64,000 bases of DNA from Methanothermococcus sp. Ax23 (GCF_049075655.1 NZ_CP157522.1:1440001-1504000); one strand, 5' to 3'. Positions 756-62,892 are shown, numbered from the stretch's first letter. The notes: a model not told the origin generated them from the letters alone. Numbers and translations are program-made.

Positions 756-3110
756 TTATTTCTCATACTTTTCTGTAAGAACTGCTTTTATCTTTTTCGC
801 TGTTATTTTTCCTACTCCCTCTACTTCCATGAGCTCATCCTCAGAAGCATTCACAATGTTTTCAATAGTGCCAAATTTCATAAGTAAATTTTCAGCAGTC
901 AGAGCTCCTACATCTGGGAAACTCTCAACTATAAATCTCTGCCTTTCTTTTAAAGACATCGGTTTTTTTCCTGTTCTTATGGCTATTGTTCGTTTAGTCC
1001 TTAATTGCTCCCTTTCAGCCATTTTTACCAATATATTTGCTGTCTCCTCTGCATCCTTTGAAAACATTACTGGAATATTAAAATCGAGCATTATGGAAAT
1101 TACCGCACCATTTACTATTTTTTCAGATAATCGGAAATAATTGTCCCCTTCTATGATTAAAATAGGTCTTTCATATTTTTTCAAATCCTTCAATTGTTTG
1201 AATAATCTTTTATCTATTATAGAGCTCTCAAAATCCTCTGCGGTTTTTCGTTCTACAATTACCCTATCGCTTAGTATATAGTCCCCATTTTCAAGATTTT
1301 TGAATTCCAGCTCTGCTTTATCGAATAAATACCTACTTACAATTTTTTCTCTGTTATCCACCACTATTTTTATAGGTTTTTGAGCATTTGTATTTTTAAT
1401 TTCAAATTCCGTATTTTTTAAATCTTCTTTTTTATCCCCTTCACATTTAATTTTTTCTTCTTTTTCTTCATCTCCTTTAATTTCTTCCTTAATTATATTA
1501 TCTTCTTTTTCTTTTTTCTCTTTTTTATCTTCCCCATTTTCTTTATTTAAAAGATAATCAAGTGTATTTTTATCCTCAATAATGTATTTATCCCTGTTCC
1601 GTTCTTCAAGTTTTTCATTTAATATTCTTTGCATATCCTTTAAAAGACGCTTCATTTTTCTTTCCTTATTTATCGCAGACCAATAATATCCTTCATCCCT
1701 GCTATCCTTTGTAATTAGAATAATGCACTCTCCACCTTCACCTCTCGAAGCTCTACCCCTTCTCTGTATAAACCTTACCTCAGAAGGCACAGGCTCGTAG
1801 AATATTACATAATTTACGCTCATAATGTCAATACCTTCCTCAGATACGCTGGTGGATACTAAAACATTTATATTGTCGTCATTTTTGAATTTTTCAACTG
1901 CCTCAACCTGTTTCTTTTGAGACATCCCTTTTCCATCCTTATTCGACTGCCCAACAAATGGTATTGCATTTATTCCCTTTGAATTAAGAACATTTACAAT
2001 TTTATCAACCGTATCCCTATACTGTGCAAATATAATTATTTTTTCTTTATTTCCGCTTTCATTATTTTTATTTAAAATATTATTTACAATCTCAATGAGT
2101 TTTTCCATCTTTGGATGCTCAATTTCGGAAGTCCTTAGCTTATACACTGCCTTTAAAACCTTGGCATCCCTTACAATAGCCTTTGCAGATTTTGTATTTT
2201 GACTTCCCAATCTTTCATAGTAGTTTAAAAATGCCTCCTTCCCTTGACATTCCAATGTCTCAATGGCATAATCCAGTTTTATAGCCTCGGAAGCTATTTT
2301 TATGAGCTCATACTTTGAACTATCGGGAATTGTCATAATTTTCTTTTGAAGCATTAGGAGCTCCGATTTATTTACATTCATAGAGTAAATTATTTTATTA
2401 TCTCTCAGCACTTTCAACCTTTCTTTAAAGGCATTTTTAAGTAAATTAATACATTCCCCATATTCCTTTGGGAGCTCCACTTTTACAGGTCTAAGTTTAA
2501 CAGTTTTTATATACTCCCTTACATCTGCATCATCGTAGGTTCTTATTTCCACATGCTCGATTCCCAAATTTTCGCATATTTCAAGTATCTTATCAATATT
2601 TGACCCGGGGGAAGCAGTTAATCCAAGAACATGTGCCTTATTTCTGAATACCGATGCTACAAATGTATAGGAATGGTTTCCAGTTGTATGGTGTGCCTCA
2701 TCTGCAATAAGAAGCACAAAATCATCGGTATTAATTCTATTTGCTACAATATCGTTTTCCACAATCTGCGGAGTGGCAATAAATATCTTTCCTTCTTCCC
2801 AAAGCTTTTTCCTCTTTGTTGGTGCTATTTTTCCAGTTAAAATTATTATTTTATCCTCATCAATATTTAAAAAAGTTTTTAAACTGTTGTAATGCTGTTC
2901 CACCAATGGACGAGACGGAGCAACAATTAAAACCTTCCCATCCTTTTTTGAAAGCATTCCCGCAATTGTTAGAGTAGCAACCGCAGTTTTTCCAAGTCCA
3001 GTCCCCAAAACACATAGAGTGTTCTTTTTTAAAGCATTTGCCACAATTATTTGCTGATATAATCGTGATTCCATGGTGTTTGGTTTTATAAGTGGGTGAT
3101 TGATATACAT
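756..3110 (-). CDS. hef: Hef helicase/ERCC4 nuclease (FANCM/Mph1-like)
   Basis: GTGLGKT, DEAHH, QRRGR helicase motifs; C-terminal ERKT nuclease motif and HhH2; ATG 3110 follows GGTGA. Confidence 0.93.
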   Translation of the reverse strand: MYINHPLIKPNTMESRLYQQIIVANALKKNTLCVLGTGLGKTAVATLTIAGMLSKKDGKVLIVAPSRPLVEQHYNSLKTFLNIDEDKIIILTGKIAPTKRKKLWEEGKIFIATPQIVENDIVANRINTDDFVLLIADEAHHTTGNHSYTFVASVFRNKAHVLGLTASPGSNIDKILEICENLGIEHVEIRTYDDADVREYIKTVKLRPVKVELPKEYGECINLLKNAFKERLKVLRDNKIIYSMNVNKSELLMLQKKIMTIPDSSKYELIKIASEAIKLDYAIETLECQGKEAFLNYYERLGSQNTKSAKAIVRDAKVLKAVYKLRTSEIEHPKMEKLIEIVNNILNKNNESGNKEKIIIFAQYRDTVDKIVNVLNSKGINAIPFVGQSNKDGKGMSQKKQVEAVEKFKNDDNINVLVSTSVSEEGIDIMSVNYVIFYEPVPSEVRFIQRRGRASRGEGGECIILITKDSRDEGYYWSAINKERKMKRLLKDMQRILNEKLEERNRDKYIIEDKNTLDYLLNKENGEDKKEKKEKEDNIIKEEIKGDEEKEEKIKCEGDKKEDLKNTEFEIKNTNAQKPIKIVVDNREKIVSRYLFDKAELEFKNLENGDYILSDRVIVERKTAEDFESSIIDKRLFKQLKDLKKYERPILIIEGDNYFRLSEKIVNGAVISIMLDFNIPVMFSKDAEETANILVKMAEREQLRTKRTIAIRTGKKPMSLKERQRFIVESFPDVGALTAENLLMKFGTIENIVNASEDELMEVEGVGKITAKKIKAVLTEKYEK

Positions 3111-3148
3111 GAGCTCACCAAGGTATAATAATATCATAAGTATAATTA

Positions 3149-3589
3149 TTATAAATCAACAATATACTTTATAACATACTCATCATTTTCCTTTTTAATT
3201 TCCATTTTATGGTATGTAATTGCCTTTACCTCTTCCTTAGGTTCGTGCTTTTCTTTATCCAGTTCTTCGCCGTAAGCTACGCATTTTAAAATATATTCTT
3301 CTTCATTTTCATTTTCCGTTCTGTTTTTTTTATGTATTTTAATATCAAAATCTGAGAATATTAAATACTCGCTGTCCAAGATTATTAGGAGCTCCGTTAA
3401 AAAATCATAAAGCAAACTGTATAAATCCTCTGAACTGATTTCAATTTCCCTTTTAATTCTTTTTTCAACAGTACCTATATTTACCATTAGATTAGATAGT
3501 GCTTTTGCAGATTCCTCAAATGCCTCTTCAAGTGTTTTTCCTCTGGCAATAACGCCCATATCTGCCATAGTTTCAAAGTATTCAAACAT
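3149..3589 (-). CDS. archease
   Basis: [12 protein letters not shown]-terminus, EVKAITYH and terminal IVDL motifs. Confidence 0.93.
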
Positions 3590-3593
3590 TTTT

Positions 3594-4640: not shown

Positions 4641-4686
4641 AAAATCACCTTAATAATGTATATCTTAATATTTCATAATATTCTTT

Positions 4687-5283: not shown

Positions 5284-6568
<1,285 letters not shown>

Positions 6569-6577
6569 TATTTCACT

Positions 6578-7432
6578 TTATATTTTGTTAAGATAGATAT
6601 CTGTTGTAGTCATAGGGATAAATCCATAATTATTAGAATGGACAATACATTTTTCTGACATTTTTTCATCATTCACATAATCCAATGTAAGAACGATAAT
6701 ACCATATTTATCTTTTAAGTATTTTAAGTTATTTGCTTGATTATTAACCCATTTTAAATCGTTATTTTCCCAGAAGTGTGCTTTTTTGTGTTTAAAATCA
6801 TAAGTTGTAGTAAAATCCTCAAACAATACTCCATTAATATATGGTGCGGTTTTATCCACAATTTCAAATCCCCTATTTTGTATAATTATTAAATTTGGAT
6901 TTTTTTCCCTAATCTCCTTAATTAATAAAATCGTTTCATCATTTTGATTTGAATATATTGCACTATCTACTGTATCTAAGAATACTCCATCGAATCCCAT
7001 ATTTTTAAACTTTGTGATTTCGTTCAATAGTATATTATGCCATTTTGGTGATTTAATATTTATATAATAAGAACCCCAATTTTGATTTTTTCCTATTGAT
7101 ATATCTTTAACATCATTATAATATGGACGAGATTTGCTAACTTCACCAATACTTAAATATGCAATAACTTTTATGTTTGGATTTAATGATTTTAATTTTT
7201 GAATGTCATCTTTTTTATAATTATATGGTTCAATAATAATTAAATCATATTTTGAAAGTTTTTCTATATTGTTTGAGCCATAATAAACCCAAAAATTGTT
7301 GATATTTAAGTTATTTTTTATATTTGGTTTATCATTAGTTCCATCATTTGTATCATAGATAGTATCTTTTGAATTATTTAAACATCCACAAAATAAAACT
7401 AAAAATAAAAAAATAGGTATGATTTTTTTCAT
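6578..7432 (-). CDS. GH114/PelA-like endo-alpha-1,4-polygalactosaminidase-family lipoprotein
   Basis: lipobox-like FCGCL; AYLSIGE, GFDGVFLDTVD, QNRGF motifs. Confidence 0.8.
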   Translation of the reverse strand: MKKIIPIFLFLVLFCGCLNNSKDTIYDTNDGTNDKPNIKNNLNINNFWVYYGSNNIEKLSKYDLIIIEPYNYKKDDIQKLKSLNPNIKVIAYLSIGEVSKSRPYYNDVKDISIGKNQNWGSYYINIKSPKWHNILLNEITKFKNMGFDGVFLDTVDSAIYSNQNDETILLIKEIREKNPNLIIIQNRGFEIVDKTAPYINGVLFEDFTTTYDFKHKKAHFWENNDLKWVNNQANNLKYLKDKYGIIVLTLDYVNDEKMSEKCIVHSNNYGFIPMTTTDIYLNKI

Positions 7433-7965
7433 TTTCCCACCCTTTTTAAAGTGAGTAATGGGATTGTTATTAATGTTATAATTAAAGCACTTAATGGAAT
7501 TGGAGTTTTCGCTGTTTGATTAGATTCCGTTTGATGAGAACCAAAATCTGATTCTAAAATTCCTCCAAAATGCATTAATTCGCCATCTTCATCCCCCCAC
7601 TGATCATTTGCGGGATTATAACCTACATTGGAAGGATGTTCTCCCGAAGCATTAAATAACTCTGCATTGTATTTTACTGATTTATATCCGTTTATAGTTG
7701 TAACATTGGTATATATTCCATAACTGCCCCCTTCAAGTTTAGCCCAAATTGTAAATCTTGCATAAGGAGTTTCTTTTATGATTGGATTATCCTTAGTGTT
7801 ATCTTTCCATACTTTAACTGAAAAGTTATATGGGGATGATAAAGATGTCCAATTTGCCTCAGTAATTGAATACTTAATAGTTACATCTGCATAACTTTGA
7901 GATATAAAGGCAATTACCAATATCGAAAAAATAATGGATGAAAGTTTATAGTTTCGCATAACCAT
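7429..7965 (-). CDS. secreted surface protein with PIP-CTERM-like sorting signal
   Basis: N-terminal signal peptide; C-terminus TPIP + TM helix + KRVGK. Confidence 0.7.
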   Translation of the reverse strand: MVMRNYKLSSIIFSILVIAFISQSYADVTIKYSITEANWTSLSSPYNFSVKVWKDNTKDNPIIKETPYARFTIWAKLEGGSYGIYTNVTTINGYKSVKYNAELFNASGEHPSNVGYNPANDQWGDEDGELMHFGGILESDFGSHQTESNQTAKTPIPLSALIITLITIPLLTLKRVGK

Positions 7966-8027
7966 CTCCCTGTGTTATTTACGCTTATATTTTTATAGCA
8001 ACTAATATTTAATTTTTTTTTAATTTT

Positions 8028-8993
8028 TTAAATTTTCCATTTATGAACATATCCCCCAAATTTAAATTCATCACTATCGATATAATGCCCATCATCTATT
8101 ACTTTTCCAATTTTTATAGATTTGGTGCTTAGCTTCCGGAGCTCATCCTCAACATCATTATATTTTTTAGTTGTAAATAGGAGCTCGAACTCTTCACCAC
8201 TATTTAAAGCAACATCTATTGGATTTAAATCAAATCTATCGCAAAATTCCATCACATCCTTTGGGAGAGTATTTAAAAGTTTTTTTGATGAGATTTCAAA
8301 GTTCCCAACATAGTATAAATCCTTTCCAAGACCATCAGATATATCACAGCAGGAATTAACATATTTATTTATGGCAATCCCCTCTTTAACCCTTGCTCTT
8401 GGTTCAGATAATTTTTTTATAATATCCGAATATTCATTTAAAAGATTTTTAAAAACCCTTTTATTAATTATTCCTTTATTCTTCATTTCAATGATTTTCA
8501 ATGCACAATAAACCCTTCCAACATCGTTTGTAATCGCTATATCGTCCCCCACTTCACCACCTCTATATATTGGATTATCTGTAATTCCAAAGGCAGTCCC
8601 ACATAATGCCAGTTCTTTTGATTTATTCGTATCTCCTCCAACAACGGGGCATTCATATTCTTTTGCTATGAAATCCATCCCCTTTGTAAGTTCTTCTATA
8701 AATTCCTTTTTTGGATGATTAAAACCCATTGAGACTACAATTCCCAATGGTTTAGCACACATTGCCGCTATATCTGATACATTTGCCGTAATTACCCTCA
8801 TACCAATTTGGAATGGTGTTAAAATCTCTGGAAAATGTGTGGATTTAAACATCATATCCGTTGTAATTGTTAAATACTGATTTCCCAATTTAAAAACCGC
8901 ACAATCATCCCCAATGGTTTTTACTGCCTTTCCAGTATATTTTAAATTACTATATATTGTTTTTATGATATCCAGTTCATTCATTATATCCAT
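8028..8993 (-). CDS. thiL: thiamine-monophosphate kinase
   Basis: IGDDCA, NVSDIAAM, GGDT, DISDGL, GEEFELLFT. Confidence 0.93.
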   Translation of the reverse strand: MDIMNELDIIKTIYSNLKYTGKAVKTIGDDCAVFKLGNQYLTITTDMMFKSTHFPEILTPFQIGMRVITANVSDIAAMCAKPLGIVVSMGFNHPKKEFIEELTKGMDFIAKEYECPVVGGDTNKSKELALCGTAFGITDNPIYRGGEVGDDIAITNDVGRVYCALKIIEMKNKGIINKRVFKNLLNEYSDIIKKLSEPRARVKEGIAINKYVNSCCDISDGLGKDLYYVGNFEISSKKLLNTLPKDVMEFCDRFDLNPIDVALNSGEEFELLFTTKKYNDVEDELRKLSTKSIKIGKVIDDGHYIDSDEFKFGGYVHKWKI

Positions 8994-9070
8994 GAGCTCA
9001 CCTAAATTTTAAATCATCTAAATTTTAAATTTTCAATAACTATATATATTAGTAATACATAATATATTTT

Positions 9071-18145: not shown

Positions 18146-21130
18146 TTAGGAATTAGTTATTACTGAATCCTCTCCAATCTTTTTTATGTTTATAATATTA
18201 TTTGCCACCTGTTCCAATTCGTTGTGGTGAGATATTACAAAAATCTGAGAAATGGTTTTTATGTTTCCAAAGATGTTTAACAGTTTTTTACGCCTATCTT
18301 CATCAAGGAATGCCGTTGGTTCGTCCAGTATTATACATTGTAGATTATTACAAACCGCTTTTGCTATTCCAAGCCTAAGTGCAAGGGATACTGCTATCTG
18401 CTCACCACCACTTAAAGTTTTTACAGGGAGCTCATCCACAATTATATCATAATCATTCTTAATTTGGATGTGGCTGTATGGCAATTCGAACTCATTAAAT
18501 ATTTCATTGGTGTATCTCTGAATAAGTGGAATATACTTTTCTCTTAAATACTGCTGAAATCCGTTCTTTGAAAAGACATTTTCCCTTATATCTATTAAAT
18601 AACCTATATAATTCTCCAATCTTTCCTTTTCTTTTTCTTTATCGTGCAATTCATTTAGATTATTTATTTGTTTTTGCAGTTGTTCCTCTTTGGAATTTAA
18701 ATATGATGTAATTTCTATAATCTGATTATTTGCATCATTTAATTTGTTGAATATTTTTTCATAATCCTCTTTTAATTTGTTGTGGTAGGTATTGTCATAA
18801 TTTAAATTATCCAGCTCTTCTAAAATATCTTTTTTGTTATCTTTTAATGATTCTATCTCTTTATTTTTATTATTTATAATCTCATTTACCGTATTTTCCA
18901 GTTTGTCAATATCTGTTCCGTATCTTTTGCAATAGTTTTCTAACACCGCAAGGGCATTTTTATATTTGCTGTAAGGTTCTTCATACATTTCCATTTCTTT
19001 TTCTATTTTGGATTTTTTCTGCTCTAATTTGATATATTGCTCTGCGTCTTTCTGTATGTTCTCGATTTCTTTTAAAGTATCAATTAACTCTTTTTCCTTA
19101 TTTTTTTTATCATTCATCAGTATTATAATATTATTTAATTTCCCCAAAACATCATTTAATTCCTTCCTTTTAGCATTTACCTTTATTCTATCATAATTGC
19201 CAACTATTTTCAAAAGATTGTTTTTATTTTCTAAAATTTCCTTTTCATTTGCATTTTTTAAATACTCCACACAAAAATTGTATTTGTTATAGTGCTTTTC
19301 TAAATCATTCTTTTTCTTTTCCAAATCTTCGATTTCCTTTTCAATGCTTACGTATTTGCTAATTTCCTTTCGGAGCTCATATAAATCATATATATGATTA
19401 TCTAAATCCCTATTTATATTTTCTAAATTCTCCTTTTTTTCCTTTAATTTTCCGTATTTGTCTTTTAATTTATTTATTTCTTCAAGCTTCTTTTTTAGTT
19501 CCTTTAATTCATTGTCATAATTGTTATATTTTTTGTTAAGTTTAATTAATACCCGTTCTTCCTTTTCAATATCATTGTGGTATGTGTTTAGGAGCTCCTC
19601 CTTTTTCTTCCCATCAATATCTGACTGACACACAGGACATTTATTATCGGTTTCTTTAAGTTTTTCAATTGCCTCTTTCATCTGGTTTATTCTTGTCTCC
19701 TTTTCAACTATTAATTTGTTAAGATTGCTTATTTTTTCCATTAATTCATCATGCTCTTTTATTAGCTCATTTTCAGTATTTATTTTACTTTCGATTTCAT
19801 CAAAATTTGATAGTTCTTTTAGGAGCTCCTCCTTTTTCTTCTTCAAGGTATCTATTTGAGAATTGATACTTTTTTCTTTTTCCTTTAATTTCCCAAAATC
19901 TACAAGTTTTGCATTTAATTCATTTAATTTTTTATTTAATTCTAAATATTCATAATAATATTTTTCATTATTTTTTAATTCTAGTTTATTTTTATTTATC
20001 TCGTTTAGTCGATTGTTTATCTCGTTCAATTCCGTTAATTTTTCCATTACAATATCTAAATTATTAAGTTCTTTTTTAATATTTTCAATATCTTTGTTTA
20101 TTGTTTCAATGTCTTTGTTTTCTGGATTAAGGTTCTTTAAATTGTTTTCAATATCCTTTAAGTTATCTTCCAAATTTTTCTTTGTGCCTCTTAATATATT
20201 GAATTTATCGTAATATTCCTTATATTTTATAATCTCATTAGATAGTTCCTTTAATTTCTCTTCAATTTCATTGTATTTTATATATCCTTCGTTATTTTCC
20301 ATTAAAATTTCACTGTATTTGTTAATGTCTATTAAGTCTTTATTTAAACTACCAATATCTTTTTCAAGAGTTTCTATTTTATGCCCTATTTCTGTCAATA
20401 TTTTATTTAAATCGTTGAATTTTTTTTCCTTTTCATCATAATGATTTAACTCTTCTTTCTTTTTTGCCTCTAATTTTTTAATGTGCTCGTATTTATTTTG
20501 CAGTTCTTTTAATTCCTTTTCCTTATATGATATTTCTTCTTTTAAATTGTTTATATCTTCCTTTATAATATCAATTTGCTTCAACTCCCCCTTTATATAC
20601 TCCAATTTACCATTGAAATTATTAATTGCCTTCCCCATCTCTTCCCAAGTTTTCTCGTATTTTTCAATGCCAAGAAGCTTACCAATAAGTTTCTTTCTTT
20701 CCGCTGGTTTGAGATTTATAAGATTGCTAATCTCCCCCTGTTTTATGTAAATTGCATTTAAAAATACCTCGTGGTCTATTCCAAGTATTTCCCTTACTTT
20801 ATTATTTACTTCATTATTGCCCTCTGCATAAAGTTTATCATTTATATAGAGCCTATCCACATTACTTCCCCTTCCCCGTCCCCTTACAATTTTATACTCG
20901 TTTCCTCCTATTTCGAATGTGAGCTCTATTAAAAATTGGTTGGTTCCCCTCTTTTTTAAGTCCTCAATTCTAGCGCTGCCTCTTGCATATAGTGCGTAAT
21001 TCATGGCTTCAAATATTGACGATTTTCCACTTCCATTCTGACCTATTATAGTGGTGATTCCTTTATTAAATGATATTTTGGTGTTTTTATGACTTCTAAA
21101 ATTCTTAATGTCAATTCCCTTTATTATCAT
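18146..21130 (-). CDS. rad50: DNA double-strand break repair ATPase Rad50
   Basis: GQNGSGKSS, coiled coil with CPVC zinc hook, LSGGE, LDEPT. Confidence 0.96.
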   Translation of the reverse strand: MIIKGIDIKNFRSHKNTKISFNKGITTIIGQNGSGKSSIFEAMNYALYARGSARIEDLKKRGTNQFLIELTFEIGGNEYKIVRGRGRGSNVDRLYINDKLYAEGNNEVNNKVREILGIDHEVFLNAIYIKQGEISNLINLKPAERKKLIGKLLGIEKYEKTWEEMGKAINNFNGKLEYIKGELKQIDIIKEDINNLKEEISYKEKELKELQNKYEHIKKLEAKKKEELNHYDEKEKKFNDLNKILTEIGHKIETLEKDIGSLNKDLIDINKYSEILMENNEGYIKYNEIEEKLKELSNEIIKYKEYYDKFNILRGTKKNLEDNLKDIENNLKNLNPENKDIETINKDIENIKKELNNLDIVMEKLTELNEINNRLNEINKNKLELKNNEKYYYEYLELNKKLNELNAKLVDFGKLKEKEKSINSQIDTLKKKKEELLKELSNFDEIESKINTENELIKEHDELMEKISNLNKLIVEKETRINQMKEAIEKLKETDNKCPVCQSDIDGKKKEELLNTYHNDIEKEERVLIKLNKKYNNYDNELKELKKKLEEINKLKDKYGKLKEKKENLENINRDLDNHIYDLYELRKEISKYVSIEKEIEDLEKKKNDLEKHYNKYNFCVEYLKNANEKEILENKNNLLKIVGNYDRIKVNAKRKELNDVLGKLNNIIILMNDKKNKEKELIDTLKEIENIQKDAEQYIKLEQKKSKIEKEMEMYEEPYSKYKNALAVLENYCKRYGTDIDKLENTVNEIINNKNKEIESLKDNKKDILEELDNLNYDNTYHNKLKEDYEKIFNKLNDANNQIIEITSYLNSKEEQLQKQINNLNELHDKEKEKERLENYIGYLIDIRENVFSKNGFQQYLREKYIPLIQRYTNEIFNEFELPYSHIQIKNDYDIIVDELPVKTLSGGEQIAVSLALRLGIAKAVCNNLQCIILDEPTAFLDEDRRKKLLNIFGNIKTISQIFVISHHNELEQVANNIINIKKIGEDSVITNS

Positions 21131-27859: not shown

Positions 27860-28292
27860 TAAATCACCAGTGTGTATAAAATGGGCTAATTATATAATTA
27901 TCGATAATTTCATCAAACTTAAAATCGTGTATAAAAGAGACAAAGAAATTATTTAAAAAATAGATGATAATTTTAATATATATCATTAACCATAGAATAT
28001 TATTATATTAAGTTATATTCATAATATTGTTGATTAATTATACTTATTAATGGTCCATTAATAACTTTTGGTAATGCTTACACTGGACACTAATAACAAT
28101 CAATAAAAAATTAGTGGTGTTTCCAATTTTGCATATACTAGTAATTGATTCTAATAATCTCCATACTACGAATTATTGAATTATAGCAAATGTTTAACAC
28201 TGCCACAATTTGATTAATATTAATATATCATATTGTGGTATATTAATATTATAGTATATTATATGCTCGCAAATTTTAATAGGGAGATATTT

Positions 28293-31200
28293 ATGTATGA
28301 TGATATACCGCAAGAAGAACTTTCAAAATTATTTAAAGAATATTGTGAATTGGATTGGAAAAAGAAATCTGAGGCAGCCCGAATATTGGGACATATTAAC
28401 GACATTAATGAGCTTAAGAAAATACAAGAGCAAATTATAAAATTAGCCCAGGATAAAAACTTAGCTACAAGAGTAAATCTAATGAACTCTATAAAGAAGC
28501 TCATTTTAGACCACCGCATTATTAATGAGGATATATTTGTTTTACTCTATTTTTGGGCCAATTCCTTCAACACCACAACATCAGAATTTGCCAAACAAAT
28601 TATAAACTCCTTAAATGTGAATGTGATTGTCGACTACATCCTCTCATTATCCATAAAACTTTATTCTTCCAATCCTTATGAAGTAGCATATGCCATGGCA
28701 TCCTTAGGATTGATATCAACAGTTACCCCTGAACACTTAACAAATACCCTCCCTGAGATTGTATTAATGTCCAACGGTCATAAATACAAGATACTTCAAG
28801 TGCTTGCTATTGAAATACTTGAAGAATTTAAAACATTGGATAAACATTATCTAATTAATTCGTATTTTATGGTATATCTAGAATACCATAAAAACGTTTT
28901 TGATACTACTGGTTTAGATAATAAATCCCTGAAATTCCTTAAATTTTTATATAATACGTATTTCAAAGAAACTGCTTCCAGAGAAGATATATTAAAAATC
29001 ATAAATGCTCTGGAAAATAGGGAACCTTTTGTAAAATCCATTATTATGGCTACATTATATACTCATGCCGATGTTTTATATCAGATATTAAAGGAGGATA
29101 AAAAATTAAGTAATTACTTGATAGATGAAACAATAAGCTCTTTTAAAAATCCTGACCGGATGATTAGGCTTTCATCCATGTTTTTGTTTATAAAGTTGAT
29201 ATTCTTTGATAAAATATATATTAAAAATGAATACTTAGATATGTTTTTTGACAAAATCCTTGAAAATTTCAATGATAAATATATTGTAAAGGGATTTTCT
29301 CTTGAAATATTATACTACCTATTAAAAAATACAGAATCGAAATATATTAAAAAGAAAGTATCTGAGGTTATTGATAAAATTGATTTAAAAAGTATAATGA
29401 ATGAAGGGCATTTATGCTATTATAATGGGTTATATTTGGCATATGAATTAAAAAAATATGAATGTTTCTCAGCAACATCTTCTCCTAATTTTAATATGGG
29501 TTTTATAGAGGAATTCAAAGATATGGATATATTGGAATTCCAGAAGCTGATTAAATCCCTATATATTGATACAAAAAGAAAAGGCTGGATAAATAGATAC
29601 TACGCTGGAAAATATTTAGGTAATGCAATATATGCAAGACCCGGTTATGCATCCAATATGTTTGATATAATCGATAATATGTTGTATGACAACACATATT
29701 TGGTAAGAAATATGGGAATATGGTTATTGAGAATGATAGTTGAGTTAAACAATGAGACTCCAAATAATCTTATTATTAAATCTACATCTTTGTTTGATGA
29801 TTGGTATTTCGGAAACCGAATCGAATATTTATTATTTTATAATATATTAATAGAGAATTACCCAAATAGTCTTGAAAAAGAAGAAATCAGAAAAAATATT
29901 ATTTCAGCAATTATGACAAAATATTTAACAGATAAACATAGATTTGTAAAAGATATTAGCAAAAACTTATTGGATAAATTATTGATTAAATTTCCAGAAT
30001 ATAAGGAATTTTTAGATTATCATAACATATCTATCAAAGAACGTTTTGATTTAATTGAAAAATATTTAAAATTTCCTGAAACGAGGAAAGCCACCATATT
30101 GCTCGCCAAAATTGAACTAAAGCGACACATCAAAAAGGGCGAGGATAACTCCATTAGAGTGATTTTAAAAGTCTTTGAGAATAATATCTACGAAGAAATA
30201 ATATATATTCTTCCAGAGATCATTGCATTGAAAGGAAAATCTGAAATAGCTAAAAAGATTGTTGAGGATTACATATCAAAATACCCCACATTACCAAAAG
30301 AGATGGATGATATTACATATCGTTTTATTGAGGAACCCATATTTAAAATAAGAAATACTCACTTAAAAAAATTATTAAGATTTATCAAGGAAGGATTGAT
30401 AATAAGCGATAAGTTATTAAACAGAGTTAAAGAATTAATAATATATGAACGTGTAGTTGAGGAAAATATCAATCTTGCATTATCAATACTTGAAGAAATA
30501 AATGAACCTGAAAGTGTAGCCATAATTAAAGAAAAAAGGGAATTAATAGAACATCTGAAAAAGAATCCATTAAATCTTGATAAAATCGAAAATGGAGATA
30601 TTGAATGGGAAAAATACCATATCAAAATAACATATATCCCAACAAAAGATGTTATTAAAATTTTTGGAAGCGACGACATTAAAGATATTGTAAAAACGAT
30701 TATTCACATATTAAATCTTGAAGAAGCAGTAATTTTGAAGATAATGGTCATGGATTTGTTAATTGAAGAGATTTCTAAAAATGGGAAGTTATTGGACGAA
30801 TTATTGTCAAATAATATATATGACATACTATCAAAATTAGCATTATTGGATGGTTATGGATTATTATCAGAAAAAGCATTAGTATTACTTGAAGGAATAG
30901 CATTGAAAAAAGATAACTGGCTGAAAAATAATCTATTAAACAATCCTGGGAAAAAACCCACATTAAAAATTATAAGAAAATTTTTAAGACATAATACATC
31001 AATCTATGTTAAATTGGAAATTATTGAGGTTTTGGAATACCTGCTAAAAAATGACATTATTATATGTGATAAACACACTGCATCTGCATTTATATACACT
31101 CTTGTGAATATTGGTAACGACCAGCCATGGATAGTATTTAAAAAAGCTGTGGATGTTATTGGTTCCTGCCAGTATATACGAGAAGATAAGAAACTTTTAA

Positions 31201-31361
31201 GTAAAATCGTTAAAAAAATTATGGAATATATTGAGGCATCCACATGTCCTGGTGTTAAAGAATATCTAATGAAAGTTCTTGAATCATTAAATGTAGAAAA
31301 AAAACTTGATAAAGATATTGTCGAAGAATATATTGAAGAATACAGTAAATTAAAAAAATAA
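28293..31361 (+). CDS. large HEAT/ARM-like alpha-solenoid protein
   Basis: about 1020 aa with recurring HEAT-like motifs (DKNLATRVN, DNTYLVRNMG, DKHRFVKD); AGGGAG RBS. Confidence 0.65.
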   Translation: MYDDIPQEELSKLFKEYCELDWKKKSEAARILGHINDINELKKIQEQIIKLAQDKNLATRVNLMNSIKKLILDHRIINEDIFVLLYFWANSFNTTTSEFAKQIINSLNVNVIVDYILSLSIKLYSSNPYEVAYAMASLGLISTVTPEHLTNTLPEIVLMSNGHKYKILQVLAIEILEEFKTLDKHYLINSYFMVYLEYHKNVFDTTGLDNKSLKFLKFLYNTYFKETASREDILKIINALENREPFVKSIIMATLYTHADVLYQILKEDKKLSNYLIDETISSFKNPDRMIRLSSMFLFIKLIFFDKIYIKNEYLDMFFDKILENFNDKYIVKGFSLEILYYLLKNTESKYIKKKVSEVIDKIDLKSIMNEGHLCYYNGLYLAYELKKYECFSATSSPNFNMGFIEEFKDMDILEFQKLIKSLYIDTKRKGWINRYYAGKYLGNAIYARPGYASNMFDIIDNMLYDNTYLVRNMGIWLLRMIVELNNETPNNLIIKSTSLFDDWYFGNRIEYLLFYNILIENYPNSLEKEEIRKNIISAIMTKYLTDKHRFVKDISKNLLDKLLIKFPEYKEFLDYHNISIKERFDLIEKYLKFPETRKATILLAKIELKRHIKKGEDNSIRVILKVFENNIYEEIIYILPEIIALKGKSEIAKKIVEDYISKYPTLPKEMDDITYRFIEEPIFKIRNTHLKKLLRFIKEGLIISDKLLNRVKELIIYERVVEENINLALSILEEINEPESVAIIKEKRELIEHLKKNPLNLDKIENGDIEWEKYHIKITYIPTKDVIKIFGSDDIKDIVKTIIHILNLEEAVILKIMVMDLLIEEISKNGKLLDELLSNNIYDILSKLALLDGYGLLSEKALVLLEGIALKKDNWLKNNLLNNPGKKPTLKIIRKFLRHNTSIYVKLEIIEVLEYLLKNDIIICDKHTASAFIYTLVNIGNDQPWIVFKKAVDVIGSCQYIREDKKLLSKIVKKIMEYIEASTCPGVKEYLMKVLESLNVEKKLDKDIVEEYIEEYSKLKK

Positions 31362-31386
31362 TTAAAAAATAAAATTCATATTTAAA

Positions 31387-39968: not shown

Positions 39969-40153
39969 AATTTTTTTCTTCTTTCCATGCTTCTTCCCTT
40001 GCTTTTTCAAAGTCCTTTAAATCATCTTTTGTTAAATCCAATTCTTTAACTAATTTTTCTAATAATATTTTTTTCAATAATCGTTCCCTTTTTTGTAATT
40101 GTTTTAATATCTTCAATTGAAAGATTTTTAATATTTTCAGTTTCAATTGGCAT
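39949..40153 (-). pseudogene. frameshifted small antitoxin-like gene
   Basis: GGTGGA RBS + MPIETENIKNLSIEDIKT in one frame; acidic helical tail ELDLTKDDLKDFEKAREEAWKE in another frame; shift near an A-run at about 40090. Confidence 0.45.
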
Positions 40154-40344
40154 AATTCCACCGAAATTTTAATATAATTATTTTTTATTAAACATTGGTA
40201 TTAATGTAAATATATAAATATATGTTATAGCGAGGGGATTTTAGGTTTTGTGAGAAAATAAATTTAAATAATAATGTATAAAAAATAATATTTATTCTCA
40301 AAATTTGGGGTGGTAATATAGTATTTAATTTTATTAAAAGTATT

Positions 40345-43005: not shown

Positions 43006-43051
43006 TTTTTAAAAAATTACCATAAGGTAAATATAAATATTCGGCGATAGT

Positions 43052-43219
43052 ATGAGCTCACCAATATTAAAACGAATTTCAAAAATGCCCGAAGAGATTC
43101 CCGAAGACAGAGGATTTAATGAAATTACAAAAGAAGAGCTGGAAAATAATTATAAAAAACTTAAAAATAAAGATTTTTAGGGAACAGAAGAAGAATTATT
43201 TGAATTATTGGAAAACTAA
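43052..43219 (+). pseudogene. small antitoxin-like ORF with internal TAG
   Basis: MSSPILKRISKMPEEIPEDRGFNEITKEELENNYKKLKNKDF*GTEEELFELLEN; RBS and TATA upstream. Confidence 0.45.
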
Positions 43220-43226
43220 AAATTAA

Positions 43227-43880
<654 letters not shown>

Positions 43881-43883
43881 TAA

Positions 43884-46000
43884 TTAATTAATTGCCTTCA
43901 ATATACTTTCAGAAGATAAATCATCTATTTTGTAGTATTTAAATCCATATTTTTTAGCAATATTTTCCCCAATTCCTATTTTTACGAATGATTTTGGTTC
44001 AGTGTCTATCAGTATAACATTTATCTCATCCTCTGCGAGTTTTTCGCAAATCTCATAAACCTCAGTTATATAATCCTCCTTCATGGCAACATTTGGCTTG
44101 AAATCACTTATAAATACAACTACTGGAATAATATTTGGGTTTTTTCTCATGCTGTTTTTAATCACTTCATAAGATTTTAAAAATGCCTTTGAAAGTGGGG
44201 TTTTTCCACCAGTTGGGGTCTCCCTTAAACATTTCTCTGCGAGCTCGACAGAGGATGTGAATGGTAGGAGGAGCTCCGCACTATCCTTCCTAAATGTAAT
44301 CATAGATACTTTGTTTCTCTTTTGGTAGGCATCCATTAGGAGGGATAAAACCGCCCCTTTTGCAGCTTCCATTCTTTTCATAGCACCCATGGAACCGCTT
44401 GCATCCACACTGAAAAGTATATTTGTTGAAATTTTTTTCTCCCTTACCTTTTCCCTTAAATCCTCCTTTTTAAGATATAATGCTACATTCTCATTGTTGG
44501 ATTTTTCCCTTCTCTCTTTTTGATATAATGCACTTGCCCTTAGGGTAGCATCAAATGCTATATCATTTGGTTTTCCCCTTGGAATCCTGTATTTTATATA
44601 CCTCCCTTTTTTACTTATACTTTTCACATGCCTTCCGCTTGAATATCTGCTTATGCTGTCTTTGAGCTGTATTTTTACTATATTGGGATTTATATTTCCA
44701 TTGGCGTTAAACATCTGTTCTTGACTGTTGCCGTTGCCGTTATCGTCGTTATCGTCGTTATTATCGCCATTGGTGTTTTGGTCATTTTTATTGTTTTCAT
44801 TTTCTGGACTATCTTCTTTATCATCATGTTCATCTTTTTCTCCTTCCCGTTCCTCATGTCCTTCATTGTTATCATTGTCGTGTTCAGCGTCATTTCCATT
44901 TAGTTTTTTTTTAAATCATTGTTGTTGTTTTCTTTTTCATCCTTATTCTCATTTTGATTATCGTCATTATTACTGTTATTATTATTTTCTTCAAAATTGT
45001 TTATCATTTCCTCTATTTTCTCATTGTTTAATTGTGGTGGTTCAAATGGTTTTCTTCTCATCCTATGGGGCAATGCCAAATCACATGCTTCCTTGATATC
45101 ATCGCTATTAACATAATCCCTTCCATTAAATGAAGCTATGGTTTTTGCAGTCCTTGCCACAGTTATATCTGCCCTATTTGTGGGAATATTTAATTCTATA
45201 CAAATTCTTGAAATTAATTCTAATAAATCATCACTAATTTTTACATCATCTAAAATTTTCCTTGCATTTTCTATCTTTTCCCTTAATTTAATCTGTTCTT
45301 CTTCATACCGACTATAAACTTCATTTGGATTTTTGTTAAACTCCTCAACTCTCTTAATTACCTCAACTCTCTGTTTAACATCATTCAGTCCTTCCACATC
45401 AACCATTAAACCAAATCTATCCAATATCTGAGGTCGGAGCTCCCCCTCCTCTGGATTCATTGTTCCAACTAAAATAAATTTAGACGGATGTTTAACCTTT
45501 ATACCTTCTCTTTCAATGGTATTCCATCCCATAGCCGCCGCATCCAAAAGAATATCAACAATATGGTCATCCAATAAATTTACTTCATCGATATATAGTA
45601 TATTTCGGTTTGCATCCGCCAATATTCCCGGTTCCAGTGCCTTTACACCTTCTTTTATCGCCTTTTCTATATCCAGCGTTCCAATTACCCTATCCTCTGT
45701 GCTTCCTATTGGCAAATCAACAACCTTCATTTTTCTTTTAGTGGTTTTTAATGTTCCCTTCTCACTGTTTTCTTTACATATATCGCACATATCGCCCCTT
45801 GGATTGCAGTTAAAAGGACAGTTCTCCACAACTTCAATTTCTGGTAGGAGCTCCGCCAATGCCCTAACTGCTGTGGATTTCGCTGTTCCTTTTTCTCCTC
45901 TAATCAAAACACCGCCTATTTTTGGATTAATTGCGTTTAAAATCAATGCTTTTTTCATTTTTTCCTGCCCAACTATTGCCGTAAATGGAAATGCCGTCAT
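43884..46000 (-). CDS. chlD: ChlI/ChlD-type chelatase subunit gene with -1 frameshift (AAA+ part 44900-46000; acidic linker + vWA in the -1 frame to 43884)
   Basis: [22 protein letters not shown]; slippery TTA AAA AAA AAC TAA; -1 frame is open into the vWA motif DASGSMG. Confidence 0.88.
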
Positions 46001-57122: not shown

Positions 57123-57204
57123 ATATTCACCATATTTCTTTTTTGTTTCTTTCTTTTAAATCCTTTTTTCTATTATTTTTCTATACTTTTTATCTTTTTC
57201 ATTT

Positions 57205-58210: not shown

Positions 58211-58245
58211 TTTTTCACCGAATTTATGTTTGTATTTTCTTTTCT

Positions 58246-59712
58246 CTGACCTACTCCCACGACTAAAGTCGTGGGGTTCTTTAGTAGGGTCTAACCCTAC
58301 ATGGGTGGCCAAACCCACTACCCCTATCTCCGTTTAGGAGATTCAGGGCTACGCTACATGAAAATACTTTTTTCAAAATATTCAAAGCACCATTAACATC
58401 AGCATTCAAAACCATACCACACTCACTACAAACATACAAACCCCTATACTTTCTATTGCTCTTTTTAACTACACCACAATTACTGCAAGTTTGAGAAGTA
58501 TAAGCTTCATTAACCTGTTCTACTGTTAATCCCTTTTCCTCTGCTTTATACTGTATCATACTTACTAACCTACCAAAAGGTATCTTGTGTATTTTCTCGT
58601 TGTTCTTTCTACCAATATCAATACTTGAAATGCCCTTGTTTAACTCACCGATTACAATCCTTGAAACTTTGTTATCCACTGCAAACTCAACAATCATTTT
58701 ACTAACCTTATGCAAATAATCCTTAGTATAATTCTTTTCTCTTACTGTTAAGCAGGATAATCGCTTATTATTCTTTAACTGTTTCCGTGTTAGTTTGGAC
58801 TGTAGTTCCCCCTTAGTTTTAGCAAACCATCGGAATTTAGAAATTAGTCTCCTTCCATCGTAGATTACTGCACTGCCCGTATTGGTTACTACTGTTGCTA
58901 AATTCTTAATTCCTAAATCAATACTTAATATATTACCTTCTTTGATAGGTTCTTGAATTACTGGTTTCTTATAGATTAAGTGAAGTATGTAGTAGGTTAT
59001 CCCGTAGATAGTCTGCGGAACTATCTCAACTTCTTTAACTTGCATGGTATCAAGCGGTAGAGTTTTCGATAACCCTACCCATAGATACCTGCACTTGATA
59101 CCATGCTTCTCTTTGAGATAGTTTTTAGTTTGTTTAGATAAGGATAATCTTAACTTATTGCCTATGATTTTGAAACCTTGCTTCTTCCATTTTACGGGAA
59201 AGTGTCCATCTTTTGGTTGGTATCGTGGTCTTTTAGTGTGTTGTTTGAAGTAGTTTTGCCATGCTATCGCTTGCGTAGCAAGCGAGCAACGAAAACCGAA
59301 GGTTTTCGTCTAATTGAGAGTTTTTGACATACTGCCTGTGCTGACTGTGAGTGCAGGTTTTTAAACCAGAAGTTATTCTTCATTTGAACATCTATCTTAC
59401 TAGGTTTAATGTTTCGTTGTATTACTTCGTAGTTAGATACATTCCAGAGTTTTGATGCTGAATAGGTTAAATGGTTTATGATTGTTAATTGTTCATTATT
59501 TAAACTTCTGGTTAGGTTTATTGTCAGCACTCTGGTTACTTGCATGGAATTCACCAAATTTATATATATGCTATTATTCTAATTACACTCATATATTATG
59601 TAGTGGAGTATATAAAAAAATGATGTCCGCCTATCATCCAATCTCATAAGAGATTTTACAAAACCTTGTTTTGTATAACGATTAAAATCGTTGGCTTTCT
59701 CGGCGGTTTATC
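58246..59712 (-). mobile_element. IS200/IS605-family element, tnpB only (IS1341-like)
   Basis: TTAC target 5' of LE (GTAA at 59713-59716); RE hairpin CCCACGACT-TT-AGTCGTGGG ending TCAG; no tnpA. Confidence 0.93.
58281..59545 (-). pseudogene. tnpB: TnpB RNA-guided nuclease, frameshifted by a 47-nt insertion
   Basis: SIDLGIKN, IGEL, CSNC..CSEC, NADVNGALNI; deleting 59266-59312 joins the two ORF pieces into about 405 aa. Confidence 0.92.
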
Positions 59713-59795
59713 GTAAAATATTTATTAAAATACATTAAAAAATATAAAAATGAATATTAAAATAAAATATTAAGGAATAATTAAATTAATTAAAA

Positions 59796-60770: not shown

Positions 60771-60948
60771 AAAATCCCCTATTTTATTTTAAATTATAAA
60801 AATGTTAATATATTATATAAAAATTTAATTATTAATTTAATTAAGTTTAATTATTAATCATTTCGTATTATATATGTTGAATAAAATAATATAAAATAAT
60901 ATAAATTAGCTATTGAATATTTATATCTTATTATTTTTTTATTTTGAA

Positions 60949-62193
60949 TTACTTTTTATATTTTTGATAAGATTCCTTTAAAAGTTCAATAACTGGAAGT
61001 TTTTTTCCAGCTAAAAACTCTATGCAGGCTCCACCCCCGGTGCTTATGTGGTCCAACTTATCTGAAACTCCCACAACACCTGCGGCAGCTGATAAATGAC
61101 CTCCGCCTATGACAGTAAATGCCTCCGACTTTGCCATGCTGTTTAAAAGCTCTTCTGTTCCTTTCAAGAAGTTTTTATTCTCAAAAACACCTGCTGGACC
61201 ATTTGCAACTATTGTTTTTGCATTGGATATAATTTCATCATATAATTTTATGGTTTCGCTTCCTATATCATGTATTGGATGAGTAATTTCTTCATTAAGG
61301 TTTAATTTTACTTCTTCTCTGTTTCCATTAACATTCAATGCTGCATCTATTGGCATCACTATCTTATCGCCGTGTTTATCCAACAATTCCCTTGCAATTT
61401 CTATCTGATTCAAATAACCCATATCTTCTATTACTTTTTTATTAGGTCCTATGTTGTAGCCCTTGGCAACTAAAAAGACATTTGCTACAATTCCTGTGAT
61501 TAATACCTTATCAGCGGAATTATTATTTAAAACATTTTTAATAACATCGATACTATCGTCAGCTTTTGCTCCGCCCAATACAAAAATAGATGGTCTTTCA
61601 GGGTTTTGTATAACCTTGCTAAGTATTTTTATCTCTTTTTCCATAATTCTTCCAGCAATTGCAGGCATGTAATAAGCAAGACCTACCAACGATGGCTGAG
61701 CTCGGTGTGCCGCAGCAAATGCATCATTTATAAAATAGTCAAATAGTGAGTAAATTCTTTTTAACATTATGGTTTTTGCCTGTTTTTTTGGAGTAATGTC
61801 TTCCCATTTTTTCCAGTCCTTCAATACTTCCTCAGAATAAAATCTAACATTTTCAAGTAATAGTATATCTCCATTATCCATCCTCTTTATCGAATTTATC
61901 GCATGGGAGCCAAACATATCATCAATATATTCAACTTCCTTTCCCAATACCTCAGATAATTTTACAGCGTGAGACTGTAATGTTGTGAAGTCCTTTTTTC
62001 CAGGTCTGCTCTGGTGTGCCAATATTACTACCTTGGCTCCTTTATTGGAGAGCTCCTTTATTGTATCGACACATGCCTTAATCCTCGTATCATCCAATAT
62101 GATTTCACTATTTACATCTATTGGACTGTTTATATCTACTCTCAATGCAACAGTTTTTCCATTAAAATCAAAATCATCTATGGTCAATAACAT
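60949..62193 (-). CDS. pgk: phosphoglycerate kinase
   Basis: [38 protein letters not shown]. Confidence 0.97.
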
Positions 62194-62466
62194 TATATCC
62201 CTCCAATGCTAAAATAATAACACCTGATAACATAAGTTTAGAACATATTTATAATTTGTAGAATTTATCATGATTTTTATATTTTATGTATTTATAATTT
62301 ACACATAAATAATTATCACACACCACATATTGATAAAGCACCTGAAAGCCTTTTTGGATTAAATGAATTTTAAAATGTATATGCTAATTATAATCATGAA
62401 ACAAAATTTAAACTTTTTCTAATTTAATTTTATTATTTTTATTATGTTATAATACATGGTGATATT

Positions 62467-62892
62467 ATGAAAGGAGAATTTTTAGCCTTAATTGTGGCTA
62501 CACTATGGGGAATTACGCCCCTAATCGAGAAAAAGGCACTTGATTACATTGACCCATTAACAGCTGTTTTTATTATAATATGTATGAATTTTTTAATAAT
62601 ATCCTCAGTTTTCATCATGTTTGGCAAAATTAATATAGCTGATTTATCATCCATTCCAATAAAACCCATTATTTATTTGGCAATGGTTTCAATACTTGCT
62701 GGCGTTGCTGCACAATATCTATTTTATAGAGCTCTTGAAGCATCATCCCCTTCAAAAGTTGTAATAATTACAAGCATGTACCCATTAATTACCATACTTG
62801 CTACAAGCATAATTTCAAAGGAATTTCCATCCATTAAAATGGTATGTGGTGCTTTTTTAGTATTTATGGGCATTTTCCTGGTCATGGATTAA
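62467..62892 (+). CDS. EamA/DMT-family transporter
   Basis: ATLWGITP...K, YRAL...SKVV...YPL; about 5 TM. Confidence 0.85.
   Translation: MKGEFLALIVATLWGITPLIEKKALDYIDPLTAVFIIICMNFLIISSVFIMFGKINIADLSSIPIKPIIYLAMVSILAGVAAQYLFYRALEASSPSKVVIITSMYPLITILATSIISKEFPSIKMVCGAFLVFMGIFLVMD

Follow-up and report, generated by a model that had tools for sequence, protein, structure and literature searches.

A 64,000-nucleotide stretch of the chromosome of the vent methanogen Methanothermococcus sp. Ax23 (NZ_CP157522.1:1440001-1504000; G000:C1:1440001-1504000 in our genome set), referred to here as the window, contains 88 copies of the palindrome GAGCTC, the first at position 831 and the last at 62729-62734 (1.4 per kb). 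None of 100 dinucleotide-preserving shuffles of the window (G+C 0.24-0.32) reached 88; the mean was 3.39 copies (sd 1.86, maximum 9), close to the "about 4" against which the initial annotation, made from the sequence alone, had set its estimate of 85-90 sites. GAGCTC is an archaeal highly iterated palindrome (HIP), held by a weak, pervasive, direction-giving process that is independent of coding and of any detectable methyltransferase.

The genome to which the window belongs (G000; 1,670,680 bp, with a second contig of 7.7 kb, a plasmid) carries 2,089 GAGCTC sites, with an observed-to-expected ratio (O/E) of 16.8 from base composition and 19.7 under a first-order Markov model. GAGCTC is the only enriched palindromic hexamer in this genome, no other rising above an O/E of 1.8. 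A fourth-order Markov model gives 1,306 sites, a prediction inflated by the pentamers GAGCT and AGCTC, which the hexamer itself raises; after GAGCT, the next base is C in about four-fifths of cases. The core of the motif is the exact hexamer, variants with a single mismatch being 5-100 times rarer. The flanks show no extended consensus, and a mild preference for G(-1)/C(+6) at 37-39% of sites is probably what the frame xGA|GCT|Cxx with GGA imposes.

Independence from coding was assessed in 1,513 long open reading frames (ORFs), used as proxy genes and covering 85% of the genome. As the initial annotation had stated, sites occur in all reading frames, with 1,092 as GAG|CTC, 616 as xGA|GCT|Cxx and 218 as xxG|AGC|TCx (1,926 in total). 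Thirty synonymous shuffles, which preserved each protein and the codon counts of each gene, gave 186 sites (maximum 217). A dicodon null (first-order codon Markov) was applied to the two phases that span three codons; although its pair counts are already inflated by the motif, it gave 185.5 sites against 616 observed for xGA|GCT|Cxx and 54.9 against 218 for xxG|AGC|TCx, so that the excess persists under the null that had been set beforehand as the refuting test. The codon following xGA-GCT begins with C in 72% of cases, compared with 14% after other GCT codons. GAG and CTC are both minor codons (25% of Glu and 7% of Leu codons, respectively); GAG-CTC nevertheless spells 1,092 of the 3,903 Glu-Leu dipeptides (28%), and 1,092 of the 2,807 CTC codons are preceded by GAG. 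In non-coding DNA (248 kb, 25.7% G+C), whose own composition would give 9.3 sites, there are 158, a roughly 17-fold excess, as in genes.

These results bear on the explanation that the excess merely follows from codon, dicodon or amino-acid usage, or from a dispersed repeat containing GAGCTC. In its favour, 57% of coding sites (1,092/1,926) are in-frame GAG|CTC, and the fourth-order Markov model by itself gives 1,306 sites. The synonymous and dicodon nulls, however, fall short 3-10 fold, both codons of the in-frame spelling are minor ones, non-coding DNA is enriched 17-fold, no extended consensus is seen in the flanks, and the excess is missing in relatives with similar codon usage. The explanation is refuted by the synonymous, non-coding and dicodon results, and we give it virtually no chance; the argument of the initial annotation that codon use alone is an unlikely explanation is borne out by the synonymous null (186 against 1,926) and on the 17-fold excess in non-coding DNA.

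Distances between neighbouring sites are exponentially distributed (mean 797 bp, coefficient of variation (CV) 1.09; genome density 1.25 per kb), the sole departure being 11 gaps of more than 5 kb where 3.9 are expected. No periodic spacing was found in a histogram of pair spacings up to 3 kb (sd 10.9 against a Poisson value of 11.6), and within genes sites are spread evenly, apart from a slight deficit in the first decile, without clustering near gene ends. The long site-free gaps are low in G+C (0.26-0.30), and one of them is a type III restriction-modification (R-M) locus. Repeated DNA, defined as blocks of at least 300 bp at 85% identity or more, amounts to 93.7 kb in 115 blocks (5.6% of the chromosome), mostly of the size of insertion sequences (IS; 1-1.6 kb), and two of the blocks lie in the window (29052-29859 and 58245-59769). 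This DNA holds 14 GAGCTC sites against 117 expected; two 4.9-kb blocks with 2 sites each are taken to be rRNA operons. The plasmid contig (7,732 bp) carries 4 sites against about 0.35 expected by our own arithmetic from composition. Since sites are found on chromosome and plasmid alike and are few in IS copies and islands, GAGCTC therefore fills long-resident DNA and is missing from young or imported DNA.

The sites proposed in spacers between ribosome-binding site and start codon at 3111 and 8994 were recovered, the minus strand reading GGTGAGCTCATG at both, and 12 genes genome-wide have a site exactly 6 nt before the called start (GGTGAGCTC-ATG, with GAGCTC built on the GA of GGTGA). The DNA described as site-free in the window does lack sites, namely the IS605-type TnpB gene, 6235-8138 and the ORF at 28233-31361, whereas the HEAT identity given to that ORF was not confirmed, as it has no Pfam match.

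Across 40 Methanococcales genomes, the comparison that the initial annotation had proposed as a check, an excess of GAGCTC is present in five, with an O/E of 17-20 for G000. The enriched genomes are G000 (2,089 sites), G012 (2,070), G010 (1,645) and G003 (1,321; 90% complete) of genus g1, and G013 (1,515) of genus g2. In these five Methanococcaceae, GAGCTC stands about 17-28 times above expectation; the remaining 35 genomes have 4-229 copies each, and the contrast between enriched and non-enriched relatives is about 20-fold. The word is far below expectation in the congeners G005 (14 copies), G008 (9), G002 (16) and G007 (4). In G005 and G004 the tetramer AGCT has an O/E of 0.13 and 0.43, respectively, and G005 hardly ever writes Glu-Leu as GAGCTN, each of the four spellings occurring 0-5 times where 45-96 would be expected; the depletion in these relatives is therefore ordinary avoidance of a four-base site. 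A GAGCTC-specific R-M system, inferred from the depletion in sister genomes, was accordingly rejected, since G005 and G004 avoid AGCT as such. In G005 the avoidance points to AluI-like restriction pressure in that lineage, which over-uses GAACTT and GAGTTG in place of GAGCTN. The footprint of restriction-site avoidance is not seen in G000, where GAGCTC is over-represented.

The pull on GAGCTC is strong enough to alter proteins, raising Glu-Leu by about 30%. The O/E of this dipeptide is 1.21 in G000, 1.24 in G012, 1.26 in G010 and 1.14 in G013, compared with 0.92 in G005 and 0.88 in G004, and the reverse dipeptide Leu-Glu is not raised in the enriched genomes. Leu-Glu is in fact under-used in G000, G012 and G010 (O/E 0.86-0.89), compared with about 1.0 in G013, G005 and G004, and its low use accompanies the near absence of CTCGAG.

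For an analysis of conservation, about 400 kb each of G012, G010, G013 and G005 and 100 kb of G004 were compared with G000 in codon alignments of reciprocal best hits (262, 301, 296, 263 and 64 pairs, with median amino-acid identities of 88%, 76%, 76%, 72% and 70%, respectively). Aligned G000 sites are also sites in 323 of 409 cases in G012 (79%), 111 of 405 in G010 (27%), 89 of 402 in G013 (22%) and 1 of 369 in G005; where the partner has no site, it mostly has another Glu-Leu spelling. Between G000 and G012, identity of the motif in the three frames is 0.76, 0.85 and 0.73, against 0.425 for all hexamers, which ranks it 17th of 1,170, 1st of 1,174 and 26th of 1,186 hexamers. The preferred spelling GAATTA is conserved at 0.54, and the one-mismatch Glu-Leu spellings, at 0-0.23, are the least stable words. 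In the same pair of genomes, codons are conserved better inside than outside the motif (GAG 0.78 and 0.41, CTC 0.82 and 0.20, GCT 0.87 and 0.56, AGC 0.76 and 0.37), by the test that Xu et al. 2018 used for the cyanobacterial palindrome HIP1 (PMC5861425). Set against similar words, existing sites are kept four to six times better.

Toward G010 and G013, conservation of the motif is at background level. At positions encoding Glu-Leu in both genomes, however, site sharing is above that under independence, at 0.36 against 0.09 for G010 (odds ratio (OR) 6) and 0.27 against 0.12 for G013 (OR 2.7), and the OR for G012 is 95. Since the split of G000 and G012, 37 and 39 sites have become private and 203 are shared, the outgroup marking 4 and 6 of the private positions as losses; gains would roughly balance losses, because the outgroups share only 29% of old sites. 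In G005, positions that carry the motif in G000 are occupied by GAACTT in 36% of cases (12% elsewhere) and by GAACTC in 15% (5% elsewhere), and CTN codons are favoured there with an OR of 3.7 (p = 4e-8), the stratified tests having few positions. These transition neighbours may be either stepping stones toward GAGCTC or ghosts of sites erased once AGCT avoidance began, and one origin followed by erasure is about as likely as parallel gains. A six-gene tree (1,923 columns, five samples) is a star, with G005, G010 and G013 branching at equal depth from the G000-G012 pair and the inner fork unresolved; CobN, tried as a distance ruler, was dropped because it is confounded by paralogues.

The landscape around the motif has a sharp edge. 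In non-coding DNA, the exact word has an O/E of 17-29, the one-mismatch class 0.82-1.17 and the two-mismatch class 0.86-1.06; as the one-mismatch class is at expectation, recognition is therefore all-or-none, like that of restriction and modification enzymes. Among Glu-Leu spellings in G000, the most depleted are GAGCTT (0.32), GAACTC (0.45) and GAACTT (0.53), which lie one or two transitions from GAGCTC, and the transversion neighbours are less depleted (GAGCTA 0.60, GAGCTG 0.92). The order of depletion is the same in G012 and partly so in G010 and G013. When one-mismatch words were compared between G000 and G012, those differing by a transition were paired with the motif in 9/112, 6/46 and 21/112 cases at half-site positions 1, 2 and 3, and those differing by a transversion in 3/194, 0/35 and 4/86 cases. 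Exchange between motif and neighbour thus amounts to 8-19% for transitions and 0-5% for transversions, and 0.13-0.40 of one-mismatch words are unchanged. Because exchange occurs at all half-site positions, all six positions take part, the A:T pair included. Sites are gained and lost via point substitutions, mainly transitions.

Of 102 differences involving the motif, 75% extend over at least two bases; the corresponding figure is 37% among other hexamers and 23% among synonymous Glu-Leu pairs. The seven gains with clean outgroup polarisation are all multi-base, among them GAATTA to GAGCTC and GAAATT (Glu-Ile) to GAGCTC. We read this pattern as two attractors, the codon-preferred spellings and the motif, separated by short-lived rare-codon intermediates, CTC outside the motif being conserved at only 20%; one-step patch writing may also occur. 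Multi-base changes were also considered as proof of concerted patch conversion and rejected as such, being equally explained by unstable rare-codon intermediates and by conditioning on a conserved outgroup state; they are therefore not used as evidence for one-step writing. The force was estimated by treating the excess as a mutation-bias equilibrium with S = ln(O/E), which gave S = 2.9-3.8, or about 3 per site; at that strength the relative loss rate should be 0.09-0.17. For the motif, -ln(conservation) came to 0.16-0.31, compared with 0.62-1.47 for Glu-Leu controls, and a weak population-scaled force is consistent with the observed retention.

The initial annotation had suggested a methylation-directed repair bias, to be checked by looking for a co-distributed methyltransferase or Vsr-like gene, and the gene content of the enriched genomes does not support this suggestion. 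In G000, no C5 methyltransferase (PF00145) was found, and Vsr (PF03852) gave 0 matches, the control model matching in 3 of 14 genomes; among G012, G010, G013, G003 and G005, PF00145 exceeded the cut-off only in G013. The only D12-class match in G000 is a Trm5-type tRNA enzyme. The DNA methyltransferases of G000 comprise the beta-class enzyme L001, a type III Mod, a type I HsdM, the type IIG fusion L006, the Eco57I-type enzyme L007 and a 1,069-aa type IIG-like protein; from enzymes of type I, type III or type IIG, recognition of a six-base palindrome would not be anticipated. L001, a 300-aa SPPY beta-class DNA methyltransferase, faces a 245-aa ORF without Pfam match in convergent orientation, and its locus (G000:C1:1437541-1439159) lies 0.8-2.5 kb upstream of the window.

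As cognate enzymes, all of these candidates fail on distribution. G000 shares the L001 pair with G003, where it has internal stops, and with five genomes of another family; the pair was not found in G012, G010 or G013. L007 was not found in G012 or G010, nor L006 in G010, and the 1,069-aa protein, not found in G010 and G003, is present in the non-enriched G005, G006 and G011. L003, L004, L008 and L010 were set aside as RNA or protein methyltransferases by Pfam, and a catalytic-motif screen of all G000 ORFs of at least 100 aa returned 20 matches with no further DNA methylase among them. In G012, with its 2,070 sites, beta-class and C5 enzymes are lacking, and the DNA methylases are limited to two HsdM-like genes and a type IIG enzyme on a plasmid. 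The sole DNA methyltransferase of G010 (1,645 sites) is a 453-aa beta-class enzyme without counterpart in G000; the N6_Mtase matches of G010 are three weak ones, which by size and matched profile region probably correspond to G000 RNA or protein methyltransferases. Every G000 DNA methyltransferase is missing from at least one other enriched genome, and neither the Pfam models nor the catalytic-motif screen found a methyltransferase orthologue common to G000, G012 and G010. In addition, the single-molecule real-time (SMRT) methylome of M. aeolicus PL15/Hp lists N4-methylcytosine at CTAG and N6-methyladenine at GTNAC (MaeIII), GCACY and CGAG, with 5-methylcytosine (m5C) inferred at ACGT and all five methyltransferases assigned to listed motifs; neither "GAGCTC" nor "AGCT" occurs in the main text of that report (PMC10113651). 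As a side observation, the copies of the L001 pair in those five genomes are 68-77% identical to it, and the two genes have the appearance of a mobile type II R-M unit whose endonuclease would fall outside all described families.

Other gene families were also surveyed. A SacI-type endonuclease (PF09566) was found in 0 of 31 genomes, the 14 control genomes being equally silent. ComEC was found in 0 of 40 genomes and DprA in 1 of 40, a non-enriched one. A TctA-like transporter is present in 35 of 40 genomes, including all five enriched ones, and hence is not discriminating. The TctA-like gene of G012 (G012:C1:516935-518076) is split into two frames (149 and 305 aa), this genome having kept 2,070 sites; the M. 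maripaludis homologue of the split gene is reported as essential for natural transformation. Archaea have been reported to be without ComEC, the TctA-like protein being a proposed transporter (PMC10133366).

Our best reading, held tentatively, is a methylation-independent, all-or-none, motif-specific biased conversion or repair by a putative protein factor. The agent would be a dimeric protein with restriction-enzyme-grade recognition of GAGCTC, acting on mismatched or heteroduplex DNA during repair or recombination, either among genome copies or between cells. Alleles with GAGCTC would then be preferentially restored or transmitted, amounting to motif-specific biased gene conversion, which may be likened to very-short-patch repair or GC-biased conversion minus methylation. 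Methanococcus has been described as polyploid with gene conversion, and polyploidy would allow such a bias to operate between the copies of a genome. This biased-conversion reading is in keeping with the all-or-none landscape, a flux dominated by transitions, the sites on the plasmid and an S of about 3. A stronger version, in which a methylation-independent system of restriction-grade specificity writes and maintains the hexamer over an entire archaeal genome by conversion between its copies, would be a new kind of sequence-specific molecular drive; it is more doubtful.

Several points weigh against biased conversion. The conversion step itself is hypothetical, and weak selection on a binding or uptake site is predicted to give the same equilibrium and conservation figures. 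No candidate protein emerged among the families searched: for HhH-GPD (Mig-type) proteins there is no paralogue specific to enriched genomes, G000, G010 and G013 having the universal member only and a paralogue of about 220 aa being scattered over enriched and non-enriched genomes, and NucS/EndoMS is present in 10 of 40 genomes and in none of the five enriched ones. Orphan T:G repair acting purely by mutation would shield the four G:C positions and no others, whereas the A:T position exchanges similarly (6/46). Polyploidy is taken from the genus Methanococcus rather than from this organism. The independence from methylation draws on a census made with Pfam models and a catalytic-motif screen, and on the presumption that G010 is M. 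aeolicus. M.MaeIII, a real methyltransferase, escaped standard annotation, and m5C goes unread by SMRT sequencing (PMC10113651).

Among alternatives, a signal for DNA exchange, in which GAGCTC marks own-clade DNA for uptake or recombination in the manner of uptake sequences or Chi and acts as a molecular drive, fragments with the word being preferentially taken up or integrated, is unlikely, although such a role is now proposed for HIP1. A density of 1.25 per kb, even within genes and random over the chromosome, would suit such a signal, as would the weak per-site force and the absence from IS copies and islands, and a contrast of about 20-fold with relatives could tell self from foreign DNA. 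The motif has no halo of near-matches, however, whereas uptake signals are graded and longer, and a palindrome is its own reverse complement and can give no Chi-type orientation. HIP1 raises transformation and correlates with transformation genes (10.1101/2024.09.10.611283, PMC13756078), but that effect depends on methylation, and the enriched genomes have no detectable GAGCTC methylase. Natural transformation is known in Methanococcus maripaludis (PMC10133366), and the TctA-like candidate transporter occurs in all five enriched genomes, but it is near-universal (35/40) and split in G012; ComEC (0/40) and DprA (1/40), lacking in archaea anyway, are uninformative, and the term "uptake sequence" has no occurrence in PMC10133366.

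Selected binding sites for an abundant, lineage-specific nucleoid or chromosome-organising protein, with weak selection keeping about 1 site per 800 bp, are quite unlikely; a chromosome-wide binding signal had been the second suggestion of the initial annotation. A palindromic word is as expected for a dimer, and conservation beyond codons, equal enrichment in coding and non-coding DNA, sites on the plasmid and the toleration of amino-acid changes to fit sites all agree with this explanation. Against it, spacing is Poisson (CV 1.09) with no phasing and no clustering near gene ends, architectural proteins seldom show all-or-none specificity without partial matches, some 2,000 sites would have to be maintained although each is nearly neutral (S about 3), and no candidate protein was identified. 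Methylation-directed repair of the very-short-patch type, by a GAGCTC or AGCT methyltransferase together with an enzyme restoring T:G to C:G, is the model proposed for HIPs (PMC4390886), but is very unlikely here. The most depleted neighbours, GAGCTT and GAACTC, are indeed T-for-C transition products, recognition has restriction-grade sharpness, AGCT is avoided in sister genomes, so that AGCT-specific systems probably circulate in the group, and m5C escapes SMRT sequencing just as methyltransferases can escape annotation (PMC10113651). Yet PF00145 and Vsr were not found in G000, C5 enzymes exceed the cut-off only in G013 of the five genomes searched, G012 is without a beta-class DNA methylase and the single one of G010 is without G000 counterpart, all G000 methylases fail co-distribution, and the A:T position exchanges too; the sole m5C enzyme of M. 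aeolicus is assigned to ACGT, and no GAGCTC motif is listed in the published methylome (PMC10113651).

The behaviour of GAGCTC may be compared with that of known systems. The Dcm/Vsr system of E. coli performs sequence-specific T:G to C:G correction with restriction-enzyme sharpness, and correction of this kind would drain T-for-C neighbours and protect existing sites, as seen here; unlike that system, G000 has no Vsr homologue or C5 methyltransferase, the A:T position is involved, and the effect is far larger than that for CCWGG in E. coli. The uptake signal sequences (USS) of Pasteurellaceae and the DNA uptake sequences (DUS) of Neisseriaceae are graded, non-palindromic signals of 9-12 bases that have numerous near-matches. 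They resemble GAGCTC in having about 1 copy per kb, in occurring in several frames of genes, in being clade-confined and in being thought to accumulate by weak drive, whereas GAGCTC is a 6-base palindrome without a halo, and archaea are not known to have an uptake signal. Unlike Chi, GAGCTC is symmetric and carries no strand orientation. GC-biased gene conversion is a weak, selection-like fixation bias (S of a few units) that can override codon preference and even alter proteins; a weak S and an origin in biased heteroduplex repair would be common to both, but GC-biased conversion favours G/C at any site, whereas the bias for GAGCTC would be specific to one hexamer.

The closest likeness, as the initial annotation had recognised, is to HIP1 (GCGATCGC) and the alternate HIPs of cyanobacteria. 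Both are exact palindromes in more than 10-fold excess in all frames, in spacers and other non-coding DNA (PMC4390886, PMC5861425), and both are conserved beyond codons, present or absent among relatives, and rare in or missing from mobile and recent DNA. GAGCTC has six bases rather than eight, its host is an archaeon with 32% G+C, and its carriers share no cognate methyltransferase, whereas a palindrome-specific methyltransferase was reported wherever a HIP is abundant (Elhai 2015, PMC4390886). HIP1 spacing is quasi-periodic and HIP1 sites with one mismatch are conserved (PMC5861425); GAGCTC spacing is random, the damped-sine fit of Xu et al. not having been repeated, and its one-mismatch words are neither enriched nor conserved. 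GAGCTC therefore passes two HIP tests, over-representation everywhere and conservation beyond codons, and fails three, namely a cognate methyltransferase, periodicity and conserved one-mismatch variants, so that it is not a strict member of the class.

In cyanobacteria, palindromes of extreme abundance have resisted explanation for three decades, and the ideas most favoured involve orphan methyltransferases and, recently, transformation. A literature search found no paper on GAGCTC or on any iterated palindrome in Methanococcales or other archaea. GAGCTC offers a clean archaeal counterpart in cultivable methanogens, with on/off contrasts among close relatives, a six-base word and an S of about 3. 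Without a methyltransferase partner in gene content or in one published methylome, the phenomenon is separated from methylation, and the search is narrowed to a sequence-specific repair, recombination or binding factor. If the methylation-independent reading is true, the methyltransferase link of cyanobacterial HIP1 would not be essential to the phenomenon. In practical terms, GAGCTC marks resident as against recently acquired DNA, IS copies and islands being nearly free of it, and it distorts codon-pair and dipeptide statistics (28% of Glu-Leu), which matters for codon-usage models, gene design and SacI cloning.

Table 1 GAGCTC sites, site-bearing genes and site-free regions in the window (coordinates counted from its first nucleotide).
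Feature	Position	Strand	Details
88 GAGCTC copies	831..62734	.	exact-match count
GAGCTC between Shine-Dalgarno-like GGTGA and ATG	3111..3116	-	GGTGAGCTCATG; 5' end of Hef-like gene
Second GGTGAGCTCATG arrangement	8994..8999	-	immediately upstream of ORF 8028-8993
Hef-like helicase/ERCC4 nuclease gene	756..3137	-	Pfam DEAD, Helicase_C, ERCC4, HhH; resident core gene, 7 sites
Rad50 gene	18146..21130	-	Pfam AAA_23, Rad50_zn_hook; resident core gene, 5 sites
IS605-family TnpB (OrfB) gene	58281..59045	-	within repeated block 58245-59769 (G000:C1:1498245-1499769); 0 sites
1,042-aa ORF	28233..31361	+	no Pfam match at E<=1e-5; 0 sites
Site-free stretch	6235..8138	.	GH114-family gene (6578-7432) and 178-aa ORF without Pfam match

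The longest site-free gap in the window, 27779-31443, holds the 1,042-aa ORF. An 808-bp portion of this ORF (window 29052-29859) is repeated elsewhere in G000 at 85% identity or more, and the ORF is probably a recent or mobile gene. A gene for a KAP-family P-loop NTPase (window 40345-43005) has 2 sites in 2.7 kb and sits in the part of the window that is lowest in G+C (0.236 over 40001-44000); it is possibly part of an imported, defence-like island. Genome-wide, all palindromic hexamers of G000 containing GATC, CTAG or GTAC are strongly avoided, as are the GTNNAC and CTNNAG sets, CTGCAG (18 copies) and CTCGAG (8 copies). The four GTNNAC palindromes (4-23 copies each) and the four CTNNAG palindromes (8-29 each) are all depleted 10-25 fold, which suggests restriction systems, past or present, with degenerate six-base sites.

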